Positions 511-39,998 are shown, counted from the stretch's first letter. The stretch is DNA of 64,000 nt from a virus (IMGVR_UViG_3300043010_000145), one strand, 5' to 3'. Numbers and translations: made by a program. Notes: generated from the letters alone by a model not told the origin.

Positions 511-633
511 TCTCGGTCTTTTGCCAGTATAGAACAAAGTCAGGAAACATCCCCCGCCCGTGCGGGGCAAATAGGCCTTGTACAGATTGCATACTTTTAG
601 CATAGGAAACATCCCCGCCCGTGCGGGGCTAAT
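511..633 (-). CRISPR. Orphan type I-E-like mini-array 1: repeat (605-633), 32-nt spacer (573-604), repeat (543-572), ~32-nt terminal spacer (511-542) running into the terminator
   Basis: Minus-strand repeats ATTAGCCCCGCACGGGCGGGGATGTTTCC and ATTTGCCCCGCACGGGCGGGGGATGTTTCC have the I-E layout (5 nt + CCCCGC/GCGGGG stem + 8-nt handle) and a 32-nt spacer; no cas genes in window. Confidence 0.85.
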
Positions 634-653
634 AAATTCCACTGGCAACTAAA

Positions 654-794
654 CAAGTAAAGCATTGCAGTAAACGTGCACTTTTACTGACCTATATCAT
701 TTGCTAGCTTTAAATGATGTAGGATTTCCCTGCATATGCTCACTTGATTGTTTCTTGCATAAGCAACATAATGTATAATGCTTTTACTTGTATG
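654..794 (-). ncRNA. Conserved structured leader RNA, copy 1, upstream of mini-array 1
   Basis: Homologous to 39725-39868; closing stem CAAGUAAAAGCAUU/AAUGCUUUACUUG enclosing three hairpins and a degenerate repeat GTGAGCATATGCAGGGAAATCC. Confidence 0.7.
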
Positions 795-799
795 ATTAA

Positions 800-827
800 A
801 GTATACCACTAAAATTACAATAAGCAA
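800..827 (-). promoter_or_regulatory. sigmaA-type promoter for leader RNA/mini-array 1
   Basis: TTGCTT-16 nt-TATACT with extended TG; GTGGTATACTTTAA shared with the promoter at 39690-39718. Confidence 0.7.
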
Positions 828-900
828 GAAGAATATGAAAGTTTAGCTAAATTTTTTCAGTACATTTTAAGCAAAAGCACAGTTTTCAACTGTACTCCTT
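824..900. repeat. ~77-bp direct repeat, copy A (minus-strand terminator + start of -35 region)
   Basis: GCAAGAAGAATATGAAAGTTTAGCTAAATTTTTTCAGTACATTTTAAGCAAAAGCACAGTTTTCAACTGT nearly identical to 1548-1625. Confidence 0.9.
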
Positions 901-998
901 TTCTTCTTTCTTTTTTCTCTCTTTGCTCTCTTTTACAGTACTCTATTTTTGTACCGAATGCAATTTTACAAAAAAAGACCTTATCCTAGTCGATAAGA

Positions 999-1496
999 TT
1001 AGTTCAAATAATAAGCATCAGATACTTCTTTAACGATTTCTCGTACAGATTGCATACTTTTCGTGTAGCTATACGGATTATGCACCAAGCTGAAACTCTG
1101 CTTTCCGTGTAGTTTTAAGGTATGCCCAACCATTTTCTCTAAGGTTTTTCTTTCCTTTTGCATACCGTTGTCATCACCATACAACACATCTTCTTTTACA
1201 GCTTGCATGGTTTTCTCAAAGTACTTTGCATTTTCAGCTTGCTGAAAATGTTCTTCTAATGTAAGAAGTTTTGCAAAACCTTTCTCTAAATGTATGAGCT
1301 GTCCTTTGAGAACTTTTGCGGCTGCTTCATTCAGATTGGTTAAATCGTAACTTCCGCTAGTTTCTTTGTAAACTCCTTCGTATTGCTCCTTGCTTACATT
1401 TCTATTTACAGGCAAGAAATAGCGGCCAGTAGTAGTTTCCAGAACGACTTTAATGGGGTATTGTTCTTCAATTTCTTTTGTAGTAGTTAGCATCAA
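999..1496 (-). CDS. Hypothetical protein (165 aa); its 3' end is matched by the mini-array 1 spacer
   Basis: GAAAGGAG RBS; flanked by the 77-bp direct repeats. Confidence 0.8.
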   Translation of the reverse strand: MMLTTTKEIEEQYPIKVVLETTTGRYFLPVNRNVSKEQYEGVYKETSGSYDLTNLNEAAAKVLKGQLIHLEKGFAKLLTLEEHFQQAENAKYFEKTMQAVKEDVLYGDDNGMQKERKTLEKMVGHTLKLHGKQSFSLVHNPYSYTKSMQSVREIVKEVSDAYYLN

Positions 1497-13783: not shown

Positions 13784-15340
13784 TTGGTGATTCTTGTGAT
13801 ACCAGAAATCGGATTGGATATTTGGGCGAAGAATACAGACCGTAACCGCTATATGCAAGAAAGTTTTCGACCTACATTCACAAGATACGTTTGTGGAAAT
13901 ACAGAGGACGAGTATAACGATGTGTGTGCTTCATTAAATGCACAAATAAAATCACATCAAGAGATTACGGTATTCATCGAGGGAAACCCAGTCTTTGAGC
14001 CTGATTTGTCTGTTTTACAGCAGCTAAAATCAGAGCTTCCTAAAATGAATCTGTTAAATTTAACAAATGATGATTTAAGGCTCTTTACAGATGATAGAGT
14101 AAATACTTTATTTTTGCGAGCTTTAAATTTCTTATTGAAAGAGCAAAAACTTGCGAATAAATCTGCACAAGAAAACTTTGTTAGTACAATCGTTGTCTAT
14201 GCTCTTAGATACTTGCCAAAGTTGAAGTTTTCCGATGAAGAAACCTGCAAAGTTGTGCAGTACGGTACTTGTGATGATAGAGGAAAGAATTTTCTTTATC
14301 TTTGTCATTTAATGGGTATGGATGTGGTTAGCTTAACACCAATGGTGGATAACGATACTTGGCCTTCTATGTGTCAAGTCATTAAATACAATCGCATGCT
14401 TCGTCAATATCCATGGGAACAAAGATGCAAACTCGGAGTTGTTCATAACCAATACCAAACTTCCACTAGTTTAGCTGCTAAGAATGTGCAGTCTGTCCTT
14501 TTTGAAGGTGATACAAATTTCCGTCCTTGGAGTTTTCGAGAAGCTACAATCGAGCCTACTCTTTTAATTTCCACAGAAGCGGATATTGATATTTCTTGGA
14601 ATGAGCAAGCCCGTATGCGAGAAGGTTTCAAAGCAAGTGTTGAGCAGAAGATTTGTGTAATTCCGCATTTCTTTTATCTCTATGACGGTATCTGTAACGA
14701 TATGAATGTATATCGTGAGAAATTGCACCGTGCAACACATGTGAAAACTTGTTGTTTTGATGCCGTAGGTGGTAAGAAATTAGCTAAGCCGATACCTTCC
14801 TCTATTGCTGCAAGATTGATGTCTCAGGGTATGCAAGGAAAAGTATTCTCCTTAGACAAACTTTGGAGATTAGACTGGTATCCGTATACAGATTTGCCTG
14901 TTGATACACAACAACGAATTATTGGTGTTATCAATAAAATTATGGAAAACGGCAGACATATCTACCGTGGAACTTTAGATGAGCATTCCAAAGCAACCTT
15001 TGTAAGTTATGCTTTCGGTTTAAGCGATACAATTCTGAGTATGATTGACAATTTTGATTGTCCGTATGATGTGCCAAAAGTTGTCTTGTTATTGCAAGGA
15101 AAAGCTTTTCTTGATGACGGAACTTGCTTAATTCTTGGCTTGCTTTCACTTCTTGGCTTTGATATTGCGGTATATTCACCAGCAGGGAGAAGTGGTTTGT
15201 TGAAAGTGATTTCTTCCGAACAATGTTGCCATTTCCGTGGGGATAGAACTGTAACAGATTATCAGTTGCAACTTCCACCAGAACAGCAACCGCAACAAGA
15301 ACAGAAACGAAAAAGCTGGTTACAGGAGCTATTCGAGTGA
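13784..15340 (+). CDS. YceG-like protein (ter/yce stress cluster)
   Basis: FRPWSF, W.E.ARMREGF, FD.P..VPKVV, GFDIAVYSPAG motifs; linked to TelA and TerD as in the B. subtilis yceC-H operon. Confidence 0.75.
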   Translation: MVILVIPEIGLDIWAKNTDRNRYMQESFRPTFTRYVCGNTEDEYNDVCASLNAQIKSHQEITVFIEGNPVFEPDLSVLQQLKSELPKMNLLNLTNDDLRLFTDDRVNTLFLRALNFLLKEQKLANKSAQENFVSTIVVYALRYLPKLKFSDEETCKVVQYGTCDDRGKNFLYLCHLMGMDVVSLTPMVDNDTWPSMCQVIKYNRMLRQYPWEQRCKLGVVHNQYQTSTSLAAKNVQSVLFEGDTNFRPWSFREATIEPTLLISTEADIDISWNEQARMREGFKASVEQKICVIPHFFYLYDGICNDMNVYREKLHRATHVKTCCFDAVGGKKLAKPIPSSIAARLMSQGMQGKVFSLDKLWRLDWYPYTDLPVDTQQRIIGVINKIMENGRHIYRGTLDEHSKATFVSYAFGLSDTILSMIDNFDCPYDVPKVVLLLQGKAFLDDGTCLILGLLSLLGFDIAVYSPAGRSGLLKVISSEQCCHFRGDRTVTDYQLQLPPEQQPQQEQKRKSWLQELFE

Positions 15341-17298
15341 GTAAGTTAACATTAGGAAGCTTATTTGACGGTTCAGGTGGTTTTCCTCTTGCAGCTGAAT
15401 TATCAGGTATTAAATCTGTATGGGCTTCCGAGGTTGAACCGTTTCCCATAGCTGTTACTAGGAAAAATTTTCCAAATATGAAACAGTTGGGTGATGTGCG
15501 GAAAATAGATGGTGCAAAGATAGAACCCGTAGATATTATTACTTTTGGTAGCCCTTGTTTTCCAAAAGGTACACTTGTTCTTACAAAGAAAGGCTATGTA
15601 CCTATTGAAAAAATTTCTACGGAAGATTATGTACTTACACATACAGGAAATTGGCATAGAGTACTTCAGACTGGTTCAAAAGAGGCAAATACTGTTCTAT
15701 TGCATGGCTGCCATCAAGGTTTGGAATGTACACCAAATCATCCAATTTATTCTGCTGAGCTTATCTCTAAGAAAGCAATAGAGGGTACAAATACATATTT
15801 TGTGAATGAACCTACTGCGGAACATACTTGGCTGGCTGCTAATGATATGTTGGGGAAGTTATGGGCTGTACCAAAATGTATTAAAGAAATTGTAGCTATG
15901 CCTAGAGATTTTTCTTTTGATGAAATGCATGAGTTTGGTTTTTCTATTACTGAAGATTCTCACTTAGAATCTTGGATTTATACTATGTCTACTGATTTAC
16001 AGCATGCATTATTAAAAGGTATTATAGATAAAGTTGGTTCATATGAAGCAGAAAGCACATTTCAGCTTGTATTTAAATCACATCATCTAGCGGAGTCTAC
16101 ACGTTTACTCGCTGAAATATTGAATTATTCAACTACTGTTTCTTATTATGATAATTTATACCATTTGCTTATTGCTAGAATTCGTCCTGAAACAAGATGT
16201 GATGATAATTTGCATTCTTGGTATTTGGTGAATGATATTGAAAAGCTTGCGTACACTAAAACCGTATATAACTTAGAAGTTGAAACGGATAATAGCTATA
16301 TTGCAAATAATATTGTTGTACATAATTGTCAGGATTTGAGTGTTTCAGGTAAGCGTGCTGGTTTAGAAGGTAAGCAATCAAGCCTTTTTCTTGAAGCAAT
16401 TCGTATTGTAAAAGAAATGCGGGAAGCAACAAGTAATACCAAACCTAGATATATTGTTTGGGAAAATGTTTGTTTTATAAAAGATACTCTGATTACAACA
16501 CCAAATTCGTATGTACCAATTCAAAATATACATATTGGAGATATGGTTCGCACACATAAGGGTACATTTGAACAAGTGCAAGGTGTACAGTGTACAAAAA
16601 ATGTGCCAACTTATACTTTGTCTACTTTATCAAATACTGTTACTGCAACTGGTGAGCATCCTTTTCTTGTTCGGAAGAAAGATAGTAAGCCAGTTTGGAA
16701 GGAGCTTTCTAAGATTTCTGAAAATGAGTATATTTCATATACATTGAATGATTCTAATCTTGCACATATATCTGATTTACTAAATAACATACTTACTAAA
16801 CATACTTCTGCTAATTCCACAGATTATTTTATTTCTGAGAATAGATTGTGGGAGAAAGTTGTTTCAGTAAAGCATGCAAGTATTCAAACTGTATATAATA
16901 TAACCGTAGAAAGAGAACATACATATGAAGCAAACGGTATCACAGTTCACAACTGCGGAGCATTCTCAAGCCATAACGGAGAAGATTTCCGAACCGTCCT
17001 CGAAGAAATTGCAAAAGTCAAAGACCCCGAAGTTTCAATACCTAAATCTGAAAAGTGGGAACAGTCCGGCTGCATCATGGCAGACAATTACAGTATTGGA
17101 TGGCGAGTTCTCGATGCTCAATATTGGGGAGTTCCCCAAAGAAGAAGCAGAGTCTTCGTTGTCGCAGATTTTGCTGGAACAGGTGGCGAAGAAATATTAT
17201 TTAAGTCCGAAGGCCTGTCAGGGTATTCTGCGGAGGGCTTTAAACAAAAACAAGAAATTGCCAAACAATATGGCAGAGATTCTTCAAAAACAGGCTAA
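15337..17298 (+). CDS. C5 cytosine DNA methyltransferase, N-terminal part (motifs I-VIII), with two inteins
   Basis: LFDGSGG, GSP|CQ, WENV, QRRSRVF; lacks motifs IX-X. Confidence 0.9.
   Translation: MSKLTLGSLFDGSGGFPLAAELSGIKSVWASEVEPFPIAVTRKNFPNMKQLGDVRKIDGAKIEPVDIITFGSPCFPKGTLVLTKKGYVPIEKISTEDYVLTHTGNWHRVLQTGSKEANTVLLHGCHQGLECTPNHPIYSAELISKKAIEGTNTYFVNEPTAEHTWLAANDMLGKLWAVPKCIKEIVAMPRDFSFDEMHEFGFSITEDSHLESWIYTMSTDLQHALLKGIIDKVGSYEAESTFQLVFKSHHLAESTRLLAEILNYSTTVSYYDNLYHLLIARIRPETRCDDNLHSWYLVNDIEKLAYTKTVYNLEVETDNSYIANNIVVHNCQDLSVSGKRAGLEGKQSSLFLEAIRIVKEMREATSNTKPRYIVWENVCFIKDTLITTPNSYVPIQNIHIGDMVRTHKGTFEQVQGVQCTKNVPTYTLSTLSNTVTATGEHPFLVRKKDSKPVWKELSKISENEYISYTLNDSNLAHISDLLNNILTKHTSANSTDYFISENRLWEKVVSVKHASIQTVYNITVEREHTYEANGITVHNCGAFSSHNGEDFRTVLEEIAKVKDPEVSIPKSEKWEQSGCIMADNYSIGWRVLDAQYWGVPQRRSRVFVVADFAGTGGEEILFKSEGLSGYSAEGFKQKQEIAKQYGRDSSKTG
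15556..16326 (+). mobile_element. Intein 1 (257 aa, degenerate LAGLIDADG remnant) inserted immediately before the catalytic Cys
   Basis: CFPKGTLV...CTPNHPI...LLKGIIDKVG...VYNLEV...VVHN|C. Confidence 0.9.
16471..16953 (+). mobile_element. Intein 2 (161-aa mini-intein) inserted after the ENV motif
   Basis: CFIKDTLI...ATGEHPF...VYNITV...TVHN|C. Confidence 0.9.
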
Positions 17299-17953
17299 TG
17301 CACAGATAGATAATGATATACAAATATGTGGTACAGTTTCAGGAGTGGCATTTACTCAAAATCAACGAGATGAAGTGAGAATTTTAGGAGATAAAGTTGG
17401 TGCTCTGGCTGCACATTCGGGTTCACATCAAACGAATTATATCTTGCTTTGCTCTGAGCCACCCAATGAAGTTGTTTCGGGAAAGCCTATTGTGGCTACT
17501 TTAATGGCCAGTCATGGTAAAAAGTGCTATCTTGGTAATCAAGATTCTTTTTCTGGTGATTATTTCTTCAATCAACCTTTGTATATTTATAATGAGGAAA
17601 TGAATAGTGTATCTGAAACAGATATTCGTATTCGCAAACTTACACCTAAGGAATGTGCTAAATTACAAGGATTTCCAGAAAATTGGGCATCAAATTTAGG
17701 TGTTGCTAATCCCACGGAGGAGCTTATACAACAAAATCAGAATATATTCAGTATATATGCAGCCACCATAGGAAATGCAGGTAAAAAGAAAACAGAAAAG
17801 CAAATTCGTAAATGGCTTGCTAATCCACACAGCGATACAGCTGAGTATACAATGTGGGGCAATGGTGTTGCATTACCTTGTGTGTATTTCATTATGGAGG
17901 GTATTGTTTGGCATGCAGCCCAAGGAAATGCCGAATATAATTTAGAAATTTAG
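16925..17953 (+). CDS. C5 methyltransferase C-terminal part (variable region + motifs IX-X) fused to an alternative-frame peptide; likely start near ATG 17114
   Basis: SLSQIL...KYYLSPKACQGILRRA; RKLTPKECAKLQGFP; WGNGVALPCV; overlaps the upstream ORF in another frame. Confidence 0.8.
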   Translation: MKQTVSQFTTAEHSQAITEKISEPSSKKLQKSKTPKFQYLNLKSGNSPAASWQTITVLDGEFSMLNIGEFPKEEAESSLSQILLEQVAKKYYLSPKACQGILRRALNKNKKLPNNMAEILQKQANAQIDNDIQICGTVSGVAFTQNQRDEVRILGDKVGALAAHSGSHQTNYILLCSEPPNEVVSGKPIVATLMASHGKKCYLGNQDSFSGDYFFNQPLYIYNEEMNSVSETDIRIRKLTPKECAKLQGFPENWASNLGVANPTEELIQQNQNIFSIYAATIGNAGKKKTEKQIRKWLANPHSDTAEYTMWGNGVALPCVYFIMEGIVWHAAQGNAEYNLEI

Positions 17954-17972: not shown

Positions 17973-19190
17973 ATGAATTTAGACTTAGAAAAGCAAGAAT
18001 CAAATTCCACAGATTCTTCTGTTATTACTGCTTCATTTGAAGAAAGTCCATTTGATGAAAATCCGTTTGCTGCTGAAAACTCCTATGTTCCAGCCGTTTC
18101 CGTAGACAAGGAACTAAGCAAACGAGATACTACTGTAATGGAAGCACCAGAGGAATACAAGGCACGCCTGAAACAACTTCCACAAGTACAAGAATTAACC
18201 AACAAAATTGATATCAACAATCCTCGTACTGTTGAAATGTTCGGTCAAGAAGCAGGAGACGGTATTAGTCGAGTTGCTGACAATATGTTAGCAAGTACAC
18301 GAGCCATTAAAACTTCTGAAATTACTGCAATGATGGACCAGTTATCCAATGTAATGAAGAAAGTAGATGCTTCTGAACTAGATTTAGATGACATGTCAGG
18401 CAAAAGAGGTTTCTTTGGTAAATTACGAATGAGAGCCAAAGAATCCTTAGAAGAATTGATTAACCGTTATGACAATGTAGGTAAAGAAGTAGATAAGATT
18501 GCCCAGATATTAAACGGGTATATGACTGACATTGACCAGACAAATAAAAATCTGCTGAAAATGTACGATGCCAATATGCAATTCTACAAACAGCTTGAAT
18601 GGTATATTGCTGCTGCTGATTGCGGATTAGATGAGTTGACTGCTGAAATTGACAAAGTAAATGCAGATACAACTAAACCAAACGAAGAAAAAAGTTTCTT
18701 AGTAAGCAAATATACAGAAGTAGCAAACCGTCTTGAACAAAGAAAAGTAGACTTACAAACTGCCGAAGTGGTATCTTTACAGTTGCAGCCTACAATTATG
18801 ATGATGATGTCTTCTAATTATCGTCTTATGGGTAAAATTAACACTTCCTTCATCATTACATTGCCTGTTTTCAAAATTGCTCTATCCAATGCAATTATGT
18901 TGAAACGACAAGAAATTGAAGCAAGAAGTATTGCACAATTAGATGCTACCACAAATGATTTCCTCGAAAGAAATGCAAAAAATACAGCAACTCAAACAAA
19001 AGCGATTGCTAAAATGGCAAATCAGACAGGTATTAAAATCGAAACTCTTGAAAAAGTACAAACTACAATCATTCAAGGTGCAGAAGAAACACAACAGATT
19101 ATTGCAGAAGCTTCTCGTAAACGTAAAGAAGATTCCGCTCAAATGGATAAGATGATTTACCAGATGAAACAAAAAGGTTTCGCACAGTAA
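17973..19190 (+). CDS. telA: Toxic anion resistance protein (TelA/YceH family)
   Basis: Coiled-coil; KINTSFIITLPVFK, TNDFLERNA motifs; follows YceG-like gene. Confidence 0.85.
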   Translation: MNLDLEKQESNSTDSSVITASFEESPFDENPFAAENSYVPAVSVDKELSKRDTTVMEAPEEYKARLKQLPQVQELTNKIDINNPRTVEMFGQEAGDGISRVADNMLASTRAIKTSEITAMMDQLSNVMKKVDASELDLDDMSGKRGFFGKLRMRAKESLEELINRYDNVGKEVDKIAQILNGYMTDIDQTNKNLLKMYDANMQFYKQLEWYIAAADCGLDELTAEIDKVNADTTKPNEEKSFLVSKYTEVANRLEQRKVDLQTAEVVSLQLQPTIMMMMSSNYRLMGKINTSFIITLPVFKIALSNAIMLKRQEIEARSIAQLDATTNDFLERNAKNTATQTKAIAKMANQTGIKIETLEKVQTTIIQGAEETQQIIAEASRKRKEDSAQMDKMIYQMKQKGFAQ

Positions 19191-19299: not shown

Positions 19300-20535
19300 A
19301 TGAAACCTTATACACATCTTGTAATGGTAAATAATGATAAGAACAACTACAAATTCTATGATATGTATGTTGAGAATTATACGGTTCGTTGTGTTTATGG
19401 ACGAATTGGTGCTGGAAGACAACAGCAGAAAGTGTATTCCCTTAGTGAATTCGATAAAATATATAACTCTAAAATAAGAAAAGGATATGTAGACCAGACA
19501 GATTATGTTGTGGAATCCACATCACAGCAGCAAACGGTTCTAAATGAAGAAAAGAAAGAAAAAGTAAAGAACGAAGCCAAGGTAACAGATGAACAGATAG
19601 AACTCTGGTATTTTCTTAAAACTTTAACAGACAATGCCAATCGCCGAGTTTTCACCAATGTCGGAGCAATTAGCAGAGCGGGTATCCGTCATGCCAAAGA
19701 ATTGCTTGAAGAAATGAAATACCATGCCAGTAAAGGTGATGTAAATTCTTTTAATGAGTGCATTATGGAAATAATGGCTATTTGCCCAAGAAATGTATCA
19801 GGCAACGGACAATATGGTGTTCAATCTTGGTTGACAGATATTTCTTATGATGCAGATGTGCAAGCTCGAATGATGCAGAGAATCATAAATCGTGAGGAGA
19901 ACATTATTCTTTCCATGAGTTCTCAGCTTGCTTACAATAACAGCAGTATTATTGTCGATAACCAAGAAGTCGGGTATATCACAGATACGGTTAAAGAAGC
20001 TACACCATATCAAGAACAGATTGTTCGTAAACATCTGACCGATTCTTTAAACAAAAAAGTTTACAAAATCTATCGTGTCATTCCAGAAGAACAAGGCAAA
20101 AAATACAAATTCTATTGCGATAAGTATGATATTCACAAAAAGAAACTCTTATGGCACGGCAGCCGTAATGAAAACTGGTTGAGTATCATTGAAACTAGCT
20201 TATCATTAAATCCAAAAGCAAAAATCACAGGCCGAATGTTCGGAAATGGTATATACTTTGCTAACAATCCTCGTAAGAGTTTCGGGTATACATCTAGCGA
20301 AAGTGCCTATTGGACGAATGAACATAGTGATTATGCGATTATGGGTTTATATGAAACTGCTTATGGTAATCCGCACGATTGCTATGCACCACATCACTAT
20401 TCCCAAAGAGAATTAAATGCAGAACATAAGAATTGTGTACATGCACACAAAGGACAGTATCTCTACAATGATGAAATCATTTATTATGATGAAGATGCAA
20501 TTTGCTTGCAATATATCGTAGTTTTCTATGCCTAA
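19300..20535 (+). CDS. Bacterial PARP-like ADP-ribosyltransferase with WGR domain
   Basis: NNYKFY...YGRIG (WGR); LLWHGS, GRMFGNGIYFA, KSFGY, NDEIIYY (H-Y-E triad). Confidence 0.9.
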   Translation: MKPYTHLVMVNNDKNNYKFYDMYVENYTVRCVYGRIGAGRQQQKVYSLSEFDKIYNSKIRKGYVDQTDYVVESTSQQQTVLNEEKKEKVKNEAKVTDEQIELWYFLKTLTDNANRRVFTNVGAISRAGIRHAKELLEEMKYHASKGDVNSFNECIMEIMAICPRNVSGNGQYGVQSWLTDISYDADVQARMMQRIINREENIILSMSSQLAYNNSSIIVDNQEVGYITDTVKEATPYQEQIVRKHLTDSLNKKVYKIYRVIPEEQGKKYKFYCDKYDIHKKKLLWHGSRNENWLSIIETSLSLNPKAKITGRMFGNGIYFANNPRKSFGYTSSESAYWTNEHSDYAIMGLYETAYGNPHDCYAPHHYSQRELNAEHKNCVHAHKGQYLYNDEIIYYDEDAICLQYIVVFYA

Positions 20536-20602: not shown

Positions 20603-20744
20603 CTTCTTCGGGAAAGGACTTGCTTTGTTGTATAATAGTAATAGAAATATTGTTAGGTAAGCATACTCTAACTCATACCAATTGTATGTTGCACTGAGTA
20701 TAGGCATGACCTTGAAATGTTTAACATTAGAGAGGGTATTAGCT

Positions 20745-21758
20745 ATGAAGATAAATAATCGAAGATATACGGGAAGTAAGTATAAATTAATGCCATGGAT
20801 TAAAGAATTAATTCTTGAAAACTGTTCTGAGCATAACACTTTATTTGATGTATTTGGTGGAACTGGTGTTGTTACTGCTGAACTTCTAGATGTTTTTAAT
20901 AGTGTAACAATAAATGATTTTCTTTTTTCAAATGAAGTTATTTATAAGGCTTTTTTTGGAAAGGATATCTATGATGAACAGAAATTATACGAGTATGTAA
21001 GAAAGTATAATTCATTGGATACAGATAAAATTGAAGATAATTATGTCTCTTTAAATTATGGAGGTAAGTATTTTCAGTATACTGATGCTAAGGTTATAGG
21101 GGAAATAAGGGAAGATATCGAGTCTGAGTATGTGCAGAAAAATATTAATACTCGTGAATACAATATTTTGCTTGCATCTTTACTGTATTCTTTTGATAGA
21201 TGTGCTAATACAGTAGGACATTATGAAGCTTATATTAAAGGAAAAGAGATTCCAAAAAAATTTTCTTTTAATTTGATTGAACCTTTACACATTGAAAATG
21301 AAATAACAATTTATCGTTCTGATGCAAATGAGCTAGCATCTTTGATTACAGCAGATGTTGCTTTTATTGACCCACCTTATAATAGTAGGCAATATTCTCG
21401 TTTTTATCATGTTATGGAGACAATTACGAAATGGGATAAGCCCAAACTTACAGGTGAGGCCATGAAACCACCAGTTGAAAATATGTCTGATTATTGTAGA
21501 AGTACAGCTCCTAGTGTTTTTGCGGATTTAATAGGAAAAATACAGGCCAAATATATTGTTGTTACTTACAACAATACTTATAATTCAAAAAGTACATCTT
21601 CTAGAAATAAGATTTCGTTAGAACAGATAAAAGATATTCTAGATACAAGGGGTAAAACGAAAGTGTATGAAAAAGCATATCATAGGTTTAATGCAGGTAA
21701 AACCGATACGAAAGGGCATAAAGAGTATGTCTTTATAACAGAGGTGTACGCTGAATGA
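20745..21758 (+). CDS. N6-adenine DNA methyltransferase (D12 class), M1 of a type IIS RM system
   Basis: RRYTGSKYKL, DVFGGTG, DPPY; GAGG RBS before ATG 20745. Confidence 0.85.
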   Translation: MKINNRRYTGSKYKLMPWIKELILENCSEHNTLFDVFGGTGVVTAELLDVFNSVTINDFLFSNEVIYKAFFGKDIYDEQKLYEYVRKYNSLDTDKIEDNYVSLNYGGKYFQYTDAKVIGEIREDIESEYVQKNINTREYNILLASLLYSFDRCANTVGHYEAYIKGKEIPKKFSFNLIEPLHIENEITIYRSDANELASLITADVAFIDPPYNSRQYSRFYHVMETITKWDKPKLTGEAMKPPVENMSDYCRSTAPSVFADLIGKIQAKYIVVTYNNTYNSKSTSSRNKISLEQIKDILDTRGKTKVYEKAYHRFNAGKTDTKGHKEYVFITEVYAE

Positions 21759-22672
21759 AAGACAATGTTTTACGTTCTCCGTTCTTTTATGTTGGTGATA
21801 AGTATAAATTGATGCCACAACTAAGAGAACTTTTTCCTAAGGATATTGATACCTATGTTGAGCCATTTGTTGGGGGTGGTAGTTCTTTCTTAAATGTAAC
21901 TGCAAAACATTATGTCGTGAATGACATTGATGCGAGCATAATTGAGTTACATAAATGGCTAACTTCCTATAAAGGAAAGGACGAGCAACTCTTAAATTTG
22001 CTATATGAACATATAGATAAATATGGTTTATCTTGTTCTTACAAAGGTATTTGTGTGCCAAATGAACTAAAGAAGAAATATGTTAAGACTTATTATTCAC
22101 ATTATAATCGTGAAGCATATCAAACTATGAAGAATGATTATAATAAAGAGAGCAGTACAGACCTTTTGTATCTTTTGTTAATTTATGGTTTTAATCATAT
22201 GATTAGGTTTAATAAGTCTGGTGAGTTTAATGTTCCAGTGGGGAATTTAGACTTCAATAAGAATGTCTTTAATGCAATACAAGGATATTTGAGTTTTATG
22301 ACTCAGAATATTGTAGAGTTCTATAACATGGATTTTATGGCATTTTTAGAACAGGTAAAGTTGAATGAACATTCTTATGTGTATCTTGACCCACCTTATT
22401 TAATCACAGGTTCTGAGTATACTAAATATTGGAATGAAAGTGAAGAAATAAGATTATGCAAATATTTAGATTTTTTGAACGATAAAGGCATAAGGTTTGG
22501 TATTACTAATCTTATTAACCATAAAGGAAAATTGAATGAAATATTCCTAAAATGGTCGAAAAAGTATTATGTTTATAATATTAATAGTAACTATATTAGT
22601 TTTAACGATAATACTGTGAAAAAAGAATCTAAGGAGGTATTTGTAACAAATTATGGCAAAAAGGAAATTTAA
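21755..22672 (+). CDS. Dam-family N6-adenine methyltransferase, M2
   Basis: SPFFYVGDKYKL, EPFVGGG, RFNKSGEFNVP, DPPY. Confidence 0.85.
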   Translation: MKDNVLRSPFFYVGDKYKLMPQLRELFPKDIDTYVEPFVGGGSSFLNVTAKHYVVNDIDASIIELHKWLTSYKGKDEQLLNLLYEHIDKYGLSCSYKGICVPNELKKKYVKTYYSHYNREAYQTMKNDYNKESSTDLLYLLLIYGFNHMIRFNKSGEFNVPVGNLDFNKNVFNAIQGYLSFMTQNIVEFYNMDFMAFLEQVKLNEHSYVYLDPPYLITGSEYTKYWNESEEIRLCKYLDFLNDKGIRFGITNLINHKGKLNEIFLKWSKKYYVYNINSNYISFNDNTVKKESKEVFVTNYGKKEI

Positions 22673-24218
22673 GCCTCTATCGTTTTCTACAACAATTCGA
22701 AATCCAGAAAGAATTCCTAAATTTTTAGCTTGTATATTACCGTATGAGAATGAAATACTTACATCAGAGATTATACATGAAATTGTTAAGATGCTTATAC
22801 GAGAGAAAGAATATAGACCGAGATATATTTTAGAAAATGATGAATTAAAAGCAATATATAAGGATTCAGATAAGACATATTCAGATAAGCAAATTGAAAC
22901 TATAATTAAGTATTCACCACAGAAACATAAAGAGGCTGGGTTTAAAAGTGGGTGGGATTCTAGATTTGATACATGGTATAAGATGTTAAAGGAACTTGGA
23001 TTTATAAAATATAAAATGGGTGCACCAATACAAATTACTGAAACTGGACATATGCTTATTGATGACTTCAACGATTCGTCCTCGAATAGCACAAAAACAA
23101 GATTAGTGTTCTTAAATGCATTAATGAAATACCAAACAAATAACCCACTTAGAAAAATCTCAAATGAAAATGCACCTTTGCCTTTACTATTAAATGTTCT
23201 GAAATATTTTAAAGAAGATGAAGAAGAAACAGATGCAGGTATTGCACGCCAAGAATTACCTATACTTATTTGTTGGACAAATAATGATGCAAAGGCAGCT
23301 TATCTTTATATAAAGAATATGCGGAAAGAGGTAGGTTTTAAGTATTCTGACGAGTATATTTATGATAAGTGTCTTTCTATTTTAGGTAATAATAATAAGA
23401 AATATTTGAAAATGAGTAAGATATGTCATGAATCTGTGGACGAATATATACGCAAAATGAGAATGACAAATCTAGTTTCTTTAAGAGGAAATGGTAGATT
23501 TTTAGATATTAATAGTTTTGAATGGGCTACTGTAAATTATATAATTGAAAATTACACAGATTACCTAAAATATGAGGATGAGGACACGTATATTGAATAT
23601 ATGTGTACCATAGATAGTAAGCTATTTAAGTTTGATGCACCACAACAGTCAAATAGTGCTGATGTTAAACAAAAGACACTATATAAGTATGCATCTACTT
23701 TAAGTACTGATGTTGTGCAAAAAGAACTTAAATTATTGTGCAAAAAGCAAGAGAGTACAAATGAGCTTTTCCGTTTTATTCCACCAGCAACTCGTTTGGA
23801 ATTCTTAACAAGTATTGTATTAGTCCAATGCTTTAAGTCATTAGATGTTAAGCCAAATTATGCTGTTGATGACGAGGGCTTACCTACATTTACTGCTGGC
23901 GGTGGCCTTGCAGATATAGAGTGCACCAGTAAAGATTACACAGGGTATGTTGAGGTAACATTACAATGTAGCAAAGTTAATCAAGTAAATAATGAGATAA
24001 TACCTATTTCTAGACATTTATTAGAAGCTAAACAGAATCATGAACAGCCTATGTTTACTATTTTATTAGCACCTAATATTCATTCAGATACAAAAGAAGC
24101 AGCTGATTGGCAAAGATATAAGTATGGTGCGGATATAAGAACTGTGGCTATGCCTGAGTTTTTAGATACTATACATAACAACAAAGATATAGAACTTGAA
24201 CAGGTTGGGAAACAGTAA
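22653..24218 (+). CDS. AlwI-family type IIS restriction endonuclease
   Basis: PLSFSTTIRNPERI, DDEGLP...GGGLADIEC...VEVTL; paired with two MTases. Confidence 0.8.
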   Translation: MAKRKFKPLSFSTTIRNPERIPKFLACILPYENEILTSEIIHEIVKMLIREKEYRPRYILENDELKAIYKDSDKTYSDKQIETIIKYSPQKHKEAGFKSGWDSRFDTWYKMLKELGFIKYKMGAPIQITETGHMLIDDFNDSSSNSTKTRLVFLNALMKYQTNNPLRKISNENAPLPLLLNVLKYFKEDEEETDAGIARQELPILICWTNNDAKAAYLYIKNMRKEVGFKYSDEYIYDKCLSILGNNNKKYLKMSKICHESVDEYIRKMRMTNLVSLRGNGRFLDINSFEWATVNYIIENYTDYLKYEDEDTYIEYMCTIDSKLFKFDAPQQSNSADVKQKTLYKYASTLSTDVVQKELKLLCKKQESTNELFRFIPPATRLEFLTSIVLVQCFKSLDVKPNYAVDDEGLPTFTAGGGLADIECTSKDYTGYVEVTLQCSKVNQVNNEIIPISRHLLEAKQNHEQPMFTILLAPNIHSDTKEAADWQRYKYGADIRTVAMPEFLDTIHNNKDIELEQVGKQ

Positions 24219-24411: not shown

Positions 24412-25110
24412 ATGCTTAATTTCACCGAATCTGCATCAAGCGGTTTTAGTGGCAATTCTGCCTTAGACCTTGATATTACAAAACAAGACTTATCTTTGGA
24501 CCTTTCCAAAACTCCTACATACTTAAATAAAATTTATGTTGGTGCTTCTTGGGATGCTCCAATTTTTGACTCACAGGGGGAAAGTTATGACCTTGACCTT
24601 ATCGCTGTATTCCTGAATGCAAATGGAAAACTGCTAGGTTTCAATCGTGCCAATGTACAAACAGCTATTAAGGGTATGCTTTGGTATCACAATCCAACAG
24701 CTCCGGGTATGCGATTCACAACTGGCGACAACCTAACAGGTTCTAGTGCACAAAATCGTATGAATACTGCAACAGATGATGAGGAAATTGAAATCTGTTT
24801 GAACGAAGTTCCAGCAGATTTGTGCAAAATTGTCTTCTGGATTGACATTAACGAAATCAGAGGAACAGGCCCTGCTATGTATAAACTGAGCCAAACGTTC
24901 GGACAAATCGAAAATGCACGAATTACTGTCTATGACGAAAATAAAAATGTACTGGCTCGTTTAAATCTGAATCAGGACTATGTAACAGACACAGCAGTTT
25001 GTGCGGGACAGTTAGAAAGAACACCGTCAGGCTGGGAATACAATGTTGTAGATGCTAAAAATCGTCATGGTATTTTTGATGTAAACGGCATTTGGCAGCA
25101 ATACATCTAA
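24412..25110 (+). CDS. terD: TerD-family stress protein
   Basis: VGASWD, DLDL, GDNLTG...DDEEIEI, FGQIENA. Confidence 0.85.
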   Translation: MLNFTESASSGFSGNSALDLDITKQDLSLDLSKTPTYLNKIYVGASWDAPIFDSQGESYDLDLIAVFLNANGKLLGFNRANVQTAIKGMLWYHNPTAPGMRFTTGDNLTGSSAQNRMNTATDDEEIEICLNEVPADLCKIVFWIDINEIRGTGPAMYKLSQTFGQIENARITVYDENKNVLARLNLNQDYVTDTAVCAGQLERTPSGWEYNVVDAKNRHGIFDVNGIWQQYI

Positions 25111-25129
25111 TTTTGAATGAGGAAACTTT

Positions 25130-25768
25130 ATGAGCATGTTAGACCTTGACCTCACAAAAGTTGAGGGTATCGACCTTACCAAAGGTGATTTATTAGACTT
25201 ATCCAAAGGTGGCTTAGAGACACACAAGTTACGAGTCGGAGCTGGCTGGAACTGTGTTGAGCGAGAAATGGGTTCTTTTATGGGCTTTCTGTTTGGCAAA
25301 ACACAAATGCTAGACGTAGACCTTGACCTTATTGCTGTTCTTGAAGATAAAAATGGCAGAGAACTCGAACGAGTTTACTTCAACCATAAGACGGATAGAC
25401 ACAATGCTATCCGTTTGGATAAAGATGACCGCCAAGGAGAAGCGGTAAGAATCAACATCGACTACCGTTGTACAAATACTTGCAAAGATACAGAAAACAT
25501 GACCGTTATCTTATCTAACTTGCCTGACAATGTACAGCATGTACGATTTGCCGTAGCCATTTATGATGAAAATACATTCCGTGATGTTCCACAAGCTTAT
25601 TGCAAACTTGTAGATGAAACAGAAGGACGGGTATTATGTAGTTTCAAAATGTCCGAAGACGGCGGAAGAAACAAGTCCATTCGTATGCTGACTTTACATA
25701 GAGCTGGCACAAGCTGGACTTTGGAAGCTATTGGTGAATACACACCAAATCGTTGGAACAATGTGTAA
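25130..25768 (+). CDS. TerD/TerZ-family stress protein
   Basis: VGAGW, DVDLDL, VYFNH, DDRQG, WTLEAIGE. Confidence 0.8.
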   Translation: MSMLDLDLTKVEGIDLTKGDLLDLSKGGLETHKLRVGAGWNCVEREMGSFMGFLFGKTQMLDVDLDLIAVLEDKNGRELERVYFNHKTDRHNAIRLDKDDRQGEAVRINIDYRCTNTCKDTENMTVILSNLPDNVQHVRFAVAIYDENTFRDVPQAYCKLVDETEGRVLCSFKMSEDGGRNKSIRMLTLHRAGTSWTLEAIGEYTPNRWNNV

Positions 25769-28730: not shown

Positions 28731-29414
28731 TTTTTCCTTTTTCTTGCTCTCCCTCTCCTATTCCTAATTCTGCCTGTACTTATATCGCTTCTGCTTGCAC
28801 CAGCTTGCATGGGTATGCCAGTCAAGTCTTCCTATCTAGGATTAGCTTATCTAATATTAGTCTATCTAATATTAGATTATCTGCACATCTTCGTGTGCAC
28901 CTAAATTTGCTAACAGAAAATTTTTCTAAGGAAAACTGCTATATAAAAGGGGAAGTATGGAAAAAGACTAGGGCTGTCTACAAGCTTTTTACTTAGCTAA
29001 AAAGCCTTATTTGTAGCCTTTTCTAGCCTTTTTGCTTGTCTGCAACAAACTTCTCGCAAGCATTTTATGATTTCTGCAACCAGATTTTTCTTTGCACAAG
29101 CTAACAGCTATAACCAGAGATGATTGCTCCAATGCTCCAATGCTCCAATCTCAATCCCAACTCTATCTTCGCCCAGAAACCGCTTGCCCCAAGTTGTCTG
29201 CAACCAGAAAGAACTGTGTCTGTTAGCACGAAGTGTTTTGTTGCAAATTTCTTTGGCTGTTTTTGTCTTGGCGAAGATTTTTTATTGACAGAAAATATGG
29301 GCTAATAGGTTTATATTTAGCTTTCTTTTAGCTTTCTTATAGCTAATAAGATAGGCGGGCGACCTCGTTTTCGTTTCACTCAAACGGACTTCCCGCCTAT
29401 CGTTGTAGGTAGTT

Positions 29415-29574
29415 AAACCAAGGCAAAGCTAAATTTAGGCATAGATAAACCAAGGTAAAGCTAGAACTAGCCATAGCTAAATCAAGGCAAAGCTAGAACT
29501 AGCCGTAGCTAAACCAAGGCAAAGCTAGAACTAGCCGTAGCTAAATCAAGGCAAAGCTAGAACTAGCCGTAGCT
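29415..29574 (+). repeat. 5 x 32-bp iteron-like tandem repeat
   Basis: AAA(C/T)CAAGGCAAAGCTAGAACTAGCCGTAGCT consensus, between two GATAGGCG-led stem-loop elements. Confidence 0.85.
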
Positions 29575-30429
29575 AAGATAGGCGAGCAACCTAGCCTGTT
29601 TTCGTTTCACTACAACAGTCGTGGCTAAAAGCACCCCTAAACACGAAGTGTTCTAGTGGTGCTTACAGGCATATGTAAAGCATATGCCTGTCTGCTGCCA
29701 CCCTGACCGCTCGCCTCCGCCCCTCACAGTATTACTTTTCGGGGCTATCGTTGTAGGTAGCTAAAACAAGGTGTAGCCTTTTTGCTTGTCTGCAACAAAC
29801 TCTTTGCAAGCATTTTACGATTTTCTTCAACCAGAGATGTCTGCTCCAATACATCAATACATCAATACTCCAATGCCAATTCCATTCTTCAACCAGAAAC
29901 CGCTTGCCCCTTATTAGCTATACAAATCAATAAATTGATTTATATAGCTATTCTGCAACCGGAAAGAACCTGTGCCTGTTGGCACGATTTGATTTGTTGC
30001 AAATATCTTTGGCTGTTTTTGTCTTGGCGAAGATTTTTATTGATATAAAATATGGAATGCTAGGGATAGATTTAGTTTTCTTATAATACTTACGATAGGC
30101 GAGCAACCAATTTTATTCCGCTTTGCTTCATAAAATCGCCGCTCGCCTATCGTTGTAGGTAGCTAAAACAACATATATCCTTTTTGCTTGTCTGCAAATA
30201 TCCCCTATGACTGGTGCCTTCCGCAGCCAGATTTTTTGCCCAAGCCTACATCTGCACCCAATCTAACTAGGCGGAACTCCCCAGCACTTCGTGTAGCTAA
30301 TCAGTCAAGCTATTGACTGATTAGCTCCGTCTCTATCTCTAAATCTGAACGATTAGCCACACGAAGCAAGATGAACTTGCTTCATATGGCTGAGAATTTG
30401 CTATAATAAATATAGAAAGGAGCACCACC

Positions 30430-30957
30430 ATGCCCAGCAAGAGAACCCCAGCCCATTTCTACACGAGAGGGAAATTTGGGAAGCGACTTCGAGAAGTCGC
30501 TGACCAAGAGAACCCCTACTTATATTCACAAGGAAGGTATGCAACGAAGTTGCAACCTTCCGACCTCCCCAATACTTACATATCTATTCACAGCAGAAGC
30601 TTATGGTACACCGAAGGCTTTATCCAAACAGCGAATGTCGTAGACATCTGCTACATACCGCTGCATCTAAATCATCTATTCAAAGATGACTATTTATACA
30701 TCAGTTATTCCGCAGACCGACCTCTGCAAATCGAGCCAACCCGATATGGCATTCCCGAATGCCTAAGCTACGACATATGTATCTGTGGCAATGACATACC
30801 GAAGCTGCTAGAAGCCATCGCTCTCAACTCCCCACACTGCCATAATCTCTCTGAGACCAAAGCCTCTGTGAAAGAGAAAGTAGAATGGTTTGCCACTCGT
30901 TACCCCGAGAGCTCTAAATCCATCAATTATCTGCATGAGCACTATGACTGGTTATAA
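30430..30957 (+). CDS. Hypothetical protein (175 aa)
   Basis: TATAAT -10 and GAAAGGAG RBS; non-repetitive protein sequence. Confidence 0.75.
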   Translation: MPSKRTPAHFYTRGKFGKRLREVADQENPYLYSQGRYATKLQPSDLPNTYISIHSRSLWYTEGFIQTANVVDICYIPLHLNHLFKDDYLYISYSADRPLQIEPTRYGIPECLSYDICICGNDIPKLLEAIALNSPHCHNLSETKASVKEKVEWFATRYPESSKSINYLHEHYDWL

Positions 30958-31150
30958 CCAGTCATTTTTATTACCTATCTCCAATATTCTCGCCTGTCTT
31001 TTATCGCCTGTCCTCTATCTCGCCTATCTGCTCTCGCCTGTCTGCTCTCGCCCGTCTATCCTTGTTGTAGTTCAGCCAGCCTATCCTATCCACCTAGCAC
31101 CACTTCTTCGGGTATCTTGTCGTAGCAGATGTTTCTGCCACCTTCTGCCT

Positions 31151-31220
31151 TGCCTTATCTTGCCTTATCTTGCCTTATCTTGCCTTATCTTGCCTTATCT
31201 TGCCTTATCTTGCCTTATCT
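31151..31220 (+). repeat. (TGCCTTATCT)x7 tandem repeat
   Basis: Direct reading. Confidence 0.95.
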
Positions 31221-31362
31221 TGCATCATTTCTATCTTGTAGGGTACTTTTGTCTTGGCTTAGCTTTATTCTCGCCTATCTCTATCTTGGCTTAGCTCTAT
31301 CTCTGCCTAGAAAGGCGGCCACGGTTCTCATTACATTTCGAACCTAAGACCCGCCTTTGTCT

Positions 31363-31520
31363 AGGCAAAGCAATCATTCAGGCAAAGCAATCATTCAGGC
31401 AAAGCAATCATTCAGGCAAAGCAATCATTCAGGCGAAGTAATTATTCAGGCGAAGTAATTATTCAGGCGAAGCAATTATTTAGGCGAAGTAATCTCTTGG
31501 CGAGTAATTATTTAGGAGAA
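31363..31520 (+). repeat. 17-bp tandem array AGGC(A/G)AAG(C/T)AAT(C/T)ATTC, about 9 units
   Basis: Four exact units then degenerate units. Confidence 0.9.
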
Positions 31521-33000
31521 GATACACCAAATGCTTGAAGTCCAGCACACTTCATCGGGTATCTTGTCATAGCAGATGTTTCAACAGACTGGTTATCTTG
31601 CCTTGCCTTGCACTATCTTGCCTTATTCCTATCTTGCAGTGTACTTCTGTTTTGTATTAGATTTACTCTTGCCTATCTTTATCTCAGTCTAGCTTTATTC
31701 TCGCCTATCTTTTGTCTTGGCTTAGCTTTTGTCTTGGCTTAGCTTTTGTCTTGGCTTAGCTTTTGTCTTGGCTTAGCTTCTGTATTGGCTAGCTATATCT
31801 AGGTATAGAAAGGCGGCCACCTTGGTAACTTCTCTATCCTCGTTACCCGCCTTTGTCTAGGCGAAGCATTTAACTAGGCGAAGCATTTAACTAGGCGAAG
31901 TAATGATTCAGGCTAAGTAATTATTCAGGCGAAGCAATCAACTCTGCATAAATATATCTGGCAAAGCATATTCTACTTGCATACAGCATGAATCAAGCAT
32001 CAGTCTATATCTGCATGCAGTGTTATTCTCGCCTGTCTGCTTTCTCGCCTGTCTATCCTCGCCTGTCTTTTCTCGCCTGTCTCTCCCTGTTGTAGTTCAG
32101 CCAGCCAGCCTATCTGCTCTCGCCTATCCTCCCACCTCCTCACTTCATTGGGTATCTTGCAGTAGCAGATGCTTCTACCTACTGGTTATCTTGCCTTGCC
32201 TTATCTTGCATCATTTCTATCTTGTAGGGTATTCTTGTCTGGGCTATCTTTTGTCTTAGCCTATCTTTATTCTTGCCTATCTTTATTCTTGCATATCTTT
32301 ATTCTTGGCTTAGCTCTATCTCTGTCTATCTTTATTCTCGCCTATCTTTTGTCTTGCCTTAGCTCTATCTCTGTCTATCTTTTGTCTTGCCTTAGCTCTA
32401 TCTCTGTCTATCTTTTGTCTTGCCTTAGCTCTATCTCTGTCTATCTTTTGTCTTGCCTATCTTTTGTCTTAGCCTAGCTATATCTAGGTATAGAAAGGCG
32501 GCCACGGTACTCCATTGCATTTCGTACCTAAGACCCGCCTTTGTCTAGGCGAAGCAATATTTAGGCAAAGCAATCATTTAGGCGAAGTTATTATCTAGGC
32601 AAAGTAATTAACTAGGCGAAGCAAACCATATATTTGCACACAGTACGGTTCTTGCATATACCCAACAAGGAGAAGCAATTGCAAGCAAGAATATGTTTGC
32701 ATGAAGCGATATCTACACCCGCCTTTGCATAGGTAACTAATTATTCAGGCACAGATATATTCAGGCGAAGCAATTAATCAGGCTGCTATACTGCACATCA
32801 TTTCTGCACCAAGAAAGCCTATATTTAGATATTTTTGTATCTTGCCTTACTATGTATCATCGCCTGATATAATCTCGCCTGTTTATTCTCGCCCTACACC
32901 ACTTCCTAGGGTATCCCTTCCACCCTTACAGTTGTGGCATACAGAAACACCTAGGCGGAGACGGATTTGCATACATATTATCTTCGCCCAGATTTATTTA

Positions 33001-33545: not shown

Positions 33546-34415
33546 ATGGCAAAAAACACAGTGAAGCAAGCAGGCGAATATGTCTGCAACGGCAAGTATT
33601 TTGTAAAAAGAGTACTAAAAGGTGGCGGAGACAGTCATATTTATCTAGCAACAGATGTAAAGTATGGTCAGGCATACTGCATCAAAGAATATGTGCACAA
33701 CAGTTCCGATGACGGTACCTTGCATGCAGGCAAGTTGATGCAGAAATTAAACCACCCCGCAATTCCCCGCATTATTTCCATTGAGCAAGAAGGCTACACA
33801 GATTACACAGTAATGGAATATGTGCAAGGAGATAATCTTCTTGACATAATTATTCTGGAAGAAGGTGGTTTGCCATTAGACAAAGCGGTGAATTATATGA
33901 AGCAGCTCTGTGGAGCGGTAGGGTATCTGCATGAAAAAACGGAAGGCAAGCCGGCGATTCTTTACAGAGACATGAAGCCTTTGAATATCATCATTTCGCC
34001 AGACGGAATGGTACATTTATTAGACTTTGATATAGCCGTAGAGCTTGAGGAAGAAGAAACAGGCGAGGCAGAAGTATCTATGGCAGCCAGTGAAAAGAAC
34101 ATCAACCGTCACCCAGTAGGAACACCTGGGTATGCCGCACCGGAGTTGTATCGCAAAGGTGCCAAGTATGATTTACGTTCCGATATTTTTGGATTAGGAG
34201 CAACATTCTACCATATGCTTACAGGGACTATTCCGAATCGGTATGTGAATTGCCGTGGTGAGTTAGAAAATCTTCCAAAAGTACATGATACCAAGCCAGA
34301 TATTCCGCCCGAAGTAGATGAAATTATAGATAAAGCTTTGAATACAGACATGGATAAGCGGTATGCAACTGTGTATGAGCTGTATCAGGCATTATGTGAA
34401 CTACCATATTGTTAA
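33546..34415 (+). CDS. Soluble Hanks-type Ser/Thr protein kinase
   Basis: GGGDSHIY, IKEY, YRDMKPLN, DFD, GTPGYAAPE, DIFGLG; AAGGAG RBS; terminator after. Confidence 0.9.
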   Translation: MAKNTVKQAGEYVCNGKYFVKRVLKGGGDSHIYLATDVKYGQAYCIKEYVHNSSDDGTLHAGKLMQKLNHPAIPRIISIEQEGYTDYTVMEYVQGDNLLDIIILEEGGLPLDKAVNYMKQLCGAVGYLHEKTEGKPAILYRDMKPLNIIISPDGMVHLLDFDIAVELEEEETGEAEVSMAASEKNINRHPVGTPGYAAPELYRKGAKYDLRSDIFGLGATFYHMLTGTIPNRYVNCRGELENLPKVHDTKPDIPPEVDEIIDKALNTDMDKRYATVYELYQALCELPYC

Positions 34416-39689: not shown

Positions 39690-39718
39690 TTGCATACTTA
39701 TTTTATTTGTGGTATACT
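39690..39718 (+). promoter_or_regulatory. sigmaA promoter for leader RNA/mini-array 2
   Basis: TTGCAT-17 nt-TATACT with extended TG. Confidence 0.75.
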
Positions 39719-39724
39719 TTAAAC

Positions 39725-39868
39725 AGACAAGGAAAAGCATTAGATATTAGGGTGCTTGGGTGAAAAACCTAAGTGAGCCCCGCACGGGCGGGGAAATCCT
39801 ATATTATTTAAAGCTAGCAAAATGATATAGGTCAGTAAAAGTGCACGTTTACTGCAATGCTTTCCTTC
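39725..39868 (+). ncRNA. Conserved structured leader RNA, copy 2, with embedded repeat-like unit at 39773-39799
   Basis: Closing stem AAGGAAAAGCAUU/AAUGCUUUCCUU; hairpins CCUAUAUUAUUU/AAAUGAUAUAGG and CAGUAAA/UUUACUG; GTGAGCCCCGCACGGGCGGGGAAATCC. Confidence 0.7.
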
Positions 39869-39998
39869 TAAAGATGTCAGGCTTGGGAACTAGTATGTCT
39901 TAACTATTCGATTGGAAAACACAGATATGTTGCAAATTTGCGGATTTGTAACAAGGTATACCAAGTTAAGTATGAAAACGGAAAAGCATCTTTCTAGT

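Follow-up and report, generated by a model that had tools for sequence, protein, structure and literature searches.

The 64,000 nucleotides of DNA analyzed here, which are catalogued as viral (IMGVR_UViG_3300043010_000145) and are called the window below, carry near one end a single CRISPR spacer held between two repeats. A first inspection, made from the sequence alone, had noted that this spacer resembles part of an adjacent gene. The locus raises the question of why an element would encode a guide that so nearly matches one of its own genes, where the guide was taken from, and which machinery could make use of it.

The carrier appears to be a giant, pXO16-like element of the conjugative-plasmid kind from gut metagenomes. 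Among the genes of the window is a transfer module that includes a DUF87/VirB4-like ATPase and an FtsK-like protein, and the best plasmid matches of the ATPase (35.6%) are to 350-kb Bacillus thuringiensis plasmids. The element has a GC content of ∼36%. The same DNA is present in several gut-type metagenome assemblies with arrays that are 100% identical, and no spacer turnover was seen between samples, the arrays being the same in every sampled copy. Samples containing the element are JGI 3300035506 and 3300043085 as well as SRR11793927 and SRR11793928. The next relatives of the element share only 35 to 37% protein identity (measured on a 718-aa protein); they keep the transfer genes and have neither arrays nor homologues of the ORFan genes described below.

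Several other features of the window were recorded. A C-5 cytosine DNA methylase (15337–17953) is interrupted by an intein with Hint/intein splicing domains; two methylases of the Dam class and an AlwI-type endonuclease come after it (20682–24218). Genes for a protein with PARP-catalytic and WGR domains (19300–20535), a Ser/Thr protein kinase (33546–34415), TelA (17973–19190), and two TerD proteins (24412–25768) are also present. Several dense blocks of 10-, 16-, and 17-nt tandem repeats at 29400–32900 are iteron-like and lie in a region where the GC skew turns, and this region may be a replication origin. Two giant ORFs of 2967 and 1889 aa (42957–51860 and 52614–58283) hold 585-nt internal repeats of the kind found in Gram-positive surface adhesins.

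Anatomy of a cas-less array with type I-E character

Array 1 is organized as a compact transcription unit on the minus strand (473–827) that comprises a promoter, a leader, a repeat-spacer-repeat segment, and a terminator. The promoter, as read from the sequence (800–827), consists of TTGCTT, 13 nt, and an extended −10 element, TGGTATACT. The pattern TTGCxx...TGGTATACT is kept in all three cassettes (alignment A2), two of which are described in a later section. A consensus promoter scan missed the array 1 promoter because at least four of the six positions of the −35 hexamer had to match. Downstream of the promoter is a leader or structured RNA of about 165 nt (634–799), which the same three-way alignment reveals to be common to the sister units termed locus 2 and cassette 3. 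This leader gives inverted matches (I1, I2, and I7) with 79 to 91% identity to positions 39706–39880, and a decayed repeat relic is embedded in it at 745–722.

The first repeat, R1 (605–633, 29 nt, sequence GTTTGCCCCGCACGGGCGGGGATGTTTCC), is composed of ATTAG, a hairpin of CCCCGC/ACGG/GCGGGG, and ATGTTTCC. Thus, 5 nt precede a 6-bp GC hairpin with a 4-nt loop, and an 8-nt handle completes the repeat, with a computed folding energy of −12.8 kcal/mol. The 32-nt spacer occupies positions 573 to 604. The second repeat, R2 (543–572, 30 nt), has an extra G between stem and handle and would supply the 3′ hairpin of a crRNA. About 32 nt (511–542) separate R2 from the terminator, and this stretch, considered as a possible terminator-capped second guide, has no match to the 3′ region of the neighboring gene. 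The unit closes with a predicted bidirectional intrinsic terminator (473–508), which has a 10-bp stem at 481–503 with T/A runs on both sides. This terminator ends both the array 1 transcript and the gene at 20–475, and it is the last hairpin in the computed fold of the array 1 transcript, a fold that beats those of shuffled sequences (z = −4.2). A terminator-promoter unit found at 1540–1639 recurs on the minus strand at 816–914 (direct repeats D2–D4, 75 to 96% identical), and this second copy places array 1 in a “gene slot” behind the neighboring gene.

In type I-E systems, repeats of 28 to 29 nt contain a GC-rich hairpin of 6 to 7 bp, a 4-nt loop, and an 8-nt handle, and spacers of 32 to 33 nt give a 61-nt period; R1, the 32-nt spacer, and the 61-nt period of array 1 agree with this. 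The layout of R1 is also the same as that of the Escherichia coli I-E repeat. Given this layout, Cas6e-type cutting would yield one canonical 61-nt crRNA with the 8-nt handle ATGTTTCC, a 32-nt guide, and a 21-nt hairpin.

No I-E cas genes (cse1, cse2, cas7e, cas5e, cas6e, or cas3) were found by Pfam among 30 ORFs of the window, and precomputed Pfam matches covering about 45 kb past the window contain none either. The Cas-related genes seen in the parts of the element examined are limited to a type I-C module and two genes that match only the Cas3_HD family. The exact array 1 repeat is absent from the GTDB species genomes and from IMG/VR, the leader is likewise absent from IMG/VR, and an Rfam search gave no match, whether at the gathering threshold or with E values relaxed to 10.

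A relaxed repeat scan of the GTDB species genomes, in which the loop was left free, yielded mostly single chance matches or terminators. It also recovered two multi-repeat arrays with 61-nt spacing and the same handle, one in Saccharopolyspora soli and one in a Desulfobulbaceae metagenome-assembled genome. The S. soli array is a canonical I-E array located directly behind cas5e-cas6e-cas1-cas2. Array 1 resembles it in repeat length, hairpin, 8-nt handle, and 61-nt periodicity, and the two repeats are identical at 24 of 29 positions, with five substitutions. Unlike the S. soli array, array 1 has no adjacent cas operon, holds a single spacer, and resides in a low-GC mobile element.

The spacer as a diverged allele of the neighboring gene

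The spacer is identical at 25 of 32 positions, including a perfect core of 19 nt, to the coding strand of the gene at 999–1496 (minus strand), where the resident copy of the protospacer spans 1067 to 1036. The match is in frame, with the spacer encoding YAKSMQSVQG where the gene encodes YTKSMQSVRE. These values had been given by the sequence-only reading and were the same when recomputed. A shared 19-mer is expected by chance about 5e-7 times in 128 kb of two-strand sequence, and random 32-mers from the window usually reach only 20 to 22 of 32 at their best position elsewhere.

The extent of this homology is informative. Identity to the gene drops to chance level on both sides of the spacer (17/68 after R2 and 24/68 before R1), and local alignment outside the spacer borders found no further homology to the gene. 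Because the homology ends exactly at the spacer edges, the segment corresponds to a capture of spacer size rather than to the leftover of a gene copy. We accordingly rejected a gene remnant of the type found in cassette 3 (below) as an explanation for the array 1 spacer, since its homology passes neither repeat. Judged by its borders and reading frame, the array 1 spacer is a spacer-sized capture from a diverged allele, with about 78% nucleotide identity, of the neighboring gene.

The mismatches between spacer and gene fall at spacer positions 3, 4, 6, 26, 29, 30, and 31. The earlier list had the first three right and omitted the four that are distal to the PAM. Position 6 is reportedly not read by I-E complexes. 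The genuine seed mismatches of the resident site are those at positions 3 and 4. This agrees with the proposal that the self copy is “seed-escaped,” with protection itself being a prediction.

Whether the self copy is also “PAM-escaped,” as had been suggested, is less clear. The 5′ flank of the resident site was confirmed to be AGC (1070–1068), whose C equals the last base of the repeat. In the E. coli I-E system, the last repeat base derives from the PAM. This correspondence between the −1 base and the last repeat base holds for the self copies of all three cassettes, and AA is present at −3 and −2 in two of the three. An AAY PAM is therefore a plausible and reasonable guess. PAM escape of the array 1 self copy is unproven because the self copies of locus 2 and cassette 3 both retain AAT. 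In E. coli, a change of AAG to AGG, which is analogous to the AGC seen here, is also said to leave a working PAM.

The neighboring gene lies 463 bp from the spacer and encodes 165 aa if translation begins at TTG. A start at the ATG at 1493, which is preceded by a GAGGA ribosome-binding site, would give 164 aa, and these signals make the gene look real. Its product is an ORFan. A word-indexed search of 5.8 billion clusters, covering proteins of near or shorter length, and a full HMMER search of 1.84 billion representatives each recovered only the protein itself. Searching plasmids and phages with tblastn gave nothing, Pfam gave only sub-threshold matches, PHROGs gave none, and the ESM Atlas held nothing above noise. 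The AlphaFold model is unusable (pLDDT of 37).

As support, the earlier reading had named a perfect spacer match, preceded by AAC, in a homologue of the 165-aa gene from plasmid, phage, or metagenome databases. Neither such a match nor a homologue was found in the libraries searched. A perfect protospacer is absent from PLSDB, GenBank phages, IMG/VR, and the JGI metagenome contigs, and in blastn comparisons of the 32-mer with the first two of these collections, all matches had E values of about 1 to 10. Scanning with the 19-nt core returned one chance match in IMG/VR and 11 in the JGI metagenome contigs, none of which exceeds 25/32. Since the 165-aa gene is an ORFan, the donor must be an allele outside every library. 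The lack of a perfect target and of a homologue may be a sampling effect. The claim that the spacer came from a homologue of the adjacent gene thus stands as far as spacer-sized, in-frame divergence is concerned, but a homologue or perfect protospacer to go with it is missing from the libraries searched.

The second allele might never have belonged to a related element. If the spacer had been taken from the ancestral gene of the element itself, and if that gene had later diverged under selection for escape, then differences would be expected in the seed and flank. Such differences are present at positions 3 and 4 of the seed and at −2 in the flank, and no second allele has ever been sampled. 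However, four of the seven mismatches are PAM-distal (26 to 31), where they bring no gain in escape, and these four alter two amino acids. The similar divergence of 15 to 22% in four guide-gene pairs (see below) also fits a single diverged donor lineage better than it fits escape on four separate occasions. We give a self-derived spacer a very slim chance of being correct.

Sister units and the recurrence of guide-neighbor pairing

Two further units share the promoter and leader of array 1. Locus 2 (39773–40084, plus strand) begins with a solitary repeat, R0 (39773–39799), which is followed by the leader, a degenerate repeat, RA (39999–40027), a guide of 26 nt (40028–40053), and a repeat, RB (40054–40084), that carries an extra AT. 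A second metagenome sample contains this locus with 100% identity. Its guide matches a resident copy on the minus strand (39210–39235) at 22 of 26 positions, with the first 15 nt perfect and a flank of AAT. This site comprises the first codons of a divergent gene (38542–39243) and is matched in frame (YVLELLVDR versus YVLELLSDP). The presumed PAM and a 15-nt seed are retained in this self copy, and locus 2 is therefore a misfit with any simple rule by which self is always escaped.

With its short guide, intact seed, and position at a start codon, locus 2 looks more like the source of a regulatory crRNA-like RNA than of a killer guide. A comparable role was considered for array 1, in which Cascade would bind the resident 165-aa gene without cutting and tune its expression. 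The partial complementarity to a neighboring gene resembles the logic of CreR and CreA, and locus 2, with 26 nt of guide, 15 PAM-proximal matches at a start codon, and an AAT flank, fits this scheme better. Guides of the CreR, CreA, and Cracr type are recognized by a shortened psi-spacer (21 to 24 nt in I-E regulators) whose PAM-proximal part matches a promoter target over 9 or more contiguous positions. In contrast, array 1 has canonical repeats and a full-length 32-nt spacer that is broken at seed positions 3 and 4, and its site is at the 3′ end of the coding sequence (codons 141–151 of 165), far from the promoter. We consider a regulatory function for array 1 to be highly improbable.

Cassette 3 (L102 12022–12420, about 9.5 kb past the end of the window) has the same promoter and leader and one I-E-style repeat. 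The 51 nt directly after this repeat correspond to the last 16 codons and the stop codon of a diverged copy of the neighboring gene. They match the 3′ end of that gene at 41 of 51 positions, or at 27 of 33 over the length of a spacer, with 7 of the 10 mismatches at third codon positions and with AAT as the flank in the neighbor. This apparent fusion is evidence that guides and genes do recombine at these loci. The 6 nt that follow the repeat (GTTTGC) equal the start of a repeat, which hints at an illegitimate join, and the cassette is flanked by small paralogous genes (MKY...).

Short-read assemblies break inside the leader and repeat that the cassettes share (contig ends of L003, L103, and L104), and consequently such units will often fall at contig ends and be missed.

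A fourth pairing was found in the type I-C module of the element (L108 12518–20706, about 33 kb past the end of the window). This module encodes a cas3 helicase that lacks a listed HD domain, together with cas5d, csd1, and cas7, and cas1, cas2, and cas4 are absent from the I-C stretch seen. Its two arrays hold at least 27 spacers. The element is thus invested in CRISPR conflict through an interference module of its own. One I-C spacer matches the gene just left of its array at 27 of 34 positions, with all mismatches in the PAM-proximal half. Two tandem genes at L102 17216–19688 (297 and 371 aa) match only the Cas3_HD family; they lie about 20 kb from the helicase-only cas3, and the two parts may constitute a split Cas3.

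Taken together, the guides from array 1, locus 2, cassette 3, and the I-C array are each about 78 to 85% identical to a gene within about 1 kb, a pairing that recurs four times in one element of >150 kb. We estimate the chance adjacency of a guide and its matched gene at about 1e-2 per guide. Of the 21 mismatches in the three I-E guides together, 12 are at the third position of a codon (P = 0.02). This bias indicates that the divergence occurred while the sequences were coding. IMG/VR contained no match to the locus 2 guide, the cassette 3 guide, or the I-C spacer.

These units could be fossils that no longer function, left either by past adaptation or by acquisition from a host array through recombination between spacer and protospacer, and that persist in a near-clonal element. 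Neither a cognate Cas system nor a target was found in the collections searched, and the arrays are identical in all sampled copies, as this explanation would predict. Decay is visible in the repeat relic at 745–722, the extra G of R2, the degenerate RA, and the extra AT of RB, and cassette 3, with its repeat joined to a 51-nt gene remnant, looks like a product of recombination rather than of adaptation. Against this, the GC-rich hairpins have been retained in six repeat copies, all still foldable, although the surrounding DNA has only 36% GC, and the stem changes in RA are compensatory. Furthermore, three copies have kept the promoter and terminator, and array 1 itself is a clean 29-32-30 unit. 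We regard a purely fossil origin as unlikely.

The repeats might alternatively act as RNA decoys. Strongly transcribed repeats similar to those of Racrs or Cracrs would soak up host Cas6e and Cascade subunits and thereby shield the element, and the guide would be incidental. Such Racrs and Cracr arrays, including I-E examples, are documented on phages and plasmids (PMC10651486; bioRxiv 10.1101/2024.10.29.618823), and the element carries several cas-less repeat units with strong promoters, among them the solitary R0. Array 1, however, is no solitary unit and is built from two near-canonical repeats with a full 32-nt spacer. A decoy would also leave the nonrandom, in-frame relation between guide and neighbor, seen for all three of the I-E-style guides, unexplained. 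We judge this explanation to be decidedly unlikely for array 1.

A possible function and its relation to known mini-arrays

Our preferred reading, whose chances we put at about even, is that array 1 is a cas-less, I-E-style mini-CRISPR in which the captured allele of a rival serves as the guide, so that relatives are targeted through host Cascade acting in trans and self is spared. The conserved promoter would drive transcription of the leader and the repeat-spacer-repeat segment, Cas6e-type processing would release the 61-nt crRNA, and this RNA would be loaded into type I-E Cascade supplied by the host cell. The loaded complex could then send Cas3 to relatives with the donor allele, whether these are incoming or co-resident, and the resident allele would be spared at least by its mismatches at seed positions 3 and 4. 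The observed features are the anatomy of the unit, an in-frame homology of spacer size, the mismatches in the seed, and the repeated occurrence of the pattern. From these we infer a related element as the donor, reliance on an I-E system of the host, and interference itself.

This targeting of relatives would also offer a reason for the closeness of array and target. A guide would be safe only while linked to a resistant allele, and recombinants that separate the two would therefore be suicidal. Recombination-based capture and homing are alternatives that could likewise bring array and target together. By extension, the four pairs of guide and resistant allele might constitute linked killer-immunity modules that act as a natural, CRISPR-guided allele drive. 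In such a drive, the guide would direct cleavage of the allele carried by a co-resident rival, at the homologous position, and recombinational repair from the array-bearing copy would spread the array together with the resistant allele. We see only a slim chance that this extension is correct; if true, it would account for the proximity of arrays and targets first seen in SPV1 and SPV2.

These Sulfolobus portogloboviruses provide the closest comparison. Their mini-arrays are accompanied by mutated self loci, and the targets are close to the arrays, a closeness that was left unexplained (Medvedeva et al. 2019, PMC6858448). Array 1 resembles them in its small number of spacers (one or two in SPV1 and SPV2), its promoter-bearing leader, and its lack of cas genes. 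In both cases, moreover, the orthologous site in the carrier is mutated (25/32 for array 1), and the target is near the array. The SPV1 and SPV2 spacers are aimed at close relatives, whereas array 1 has no perfect match in the collections searched. Array 1 also differs from the archaeal examples in being bacterial, in having a type I-E-style repeat, and in its location on a giant element of the conjugative-plasmid kind. In addition, guide-neighbor pairing occurs four times in this one element, and in one sister unit the repeat runs directly into a gene remnant.

Plasmid-borne arrays are a second point of reference. Their spacers are directed mostly at other plasmids, and orphan arrays are proposed to rely on Cas proteins acting in trans (Pinilla-Redondo et al. 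2022, PMC9071438). Like the orphan arrays and CRISPR-Cas loci of that survey, array 1 appears to be plasmid-borne, and its element also has its own I-C module. Guides that are alleles of an adjacent gene, as seen here, are not reported in the survey, which left two-repeat arrays out of most of its analyses.

A Racr consists of a solitary repeat and has no guide (Camara-Wilpert et al. 2023, PMC10651486), and Cracr guides are short (21 to 24 nt in the I-E example) and match the promoters of host cas or toxin genes (Liu et al., bioRxiv 10.1101/2024.10.29.618823). Array 1 shares with both the property of being a cas-less repeat mimic on a mobile element, a group that includes I-E forms sometimes stacked as small arrays. 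In contrast to Racrs, array 1 has a repeat-spacer-repeat organization, and R0 is the only solitary repeat. In contrast to Cracrs, it has a full 32-nt guide that comes from the coding sequence of a gene family of the element itself.

Array 1 thus belongs to a known class, the mini-CRISPR arrays of mobile elements, and the sequence-only interpretation is partly supported. Mini-arrays directed against the relatives of their own carriers are documented mainly in archaeal viruses. Array 1 would be a bacterial example of I-E style, and its carrier, a giant conjugative element, has an I-C module of its own as well. Array 1 illustrates that interpretable information can reside in arrays of two repeats, which are discarded by standard CRISPR finders. 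The main interest lies in the fourfold linkage of guide and neighbor, which turns the proximity puzzle posed by the SPV arrays and their targets into a testable question for which selection for linkage between guide and immune allele, recombination-based capture, and homing are the candidate answers.
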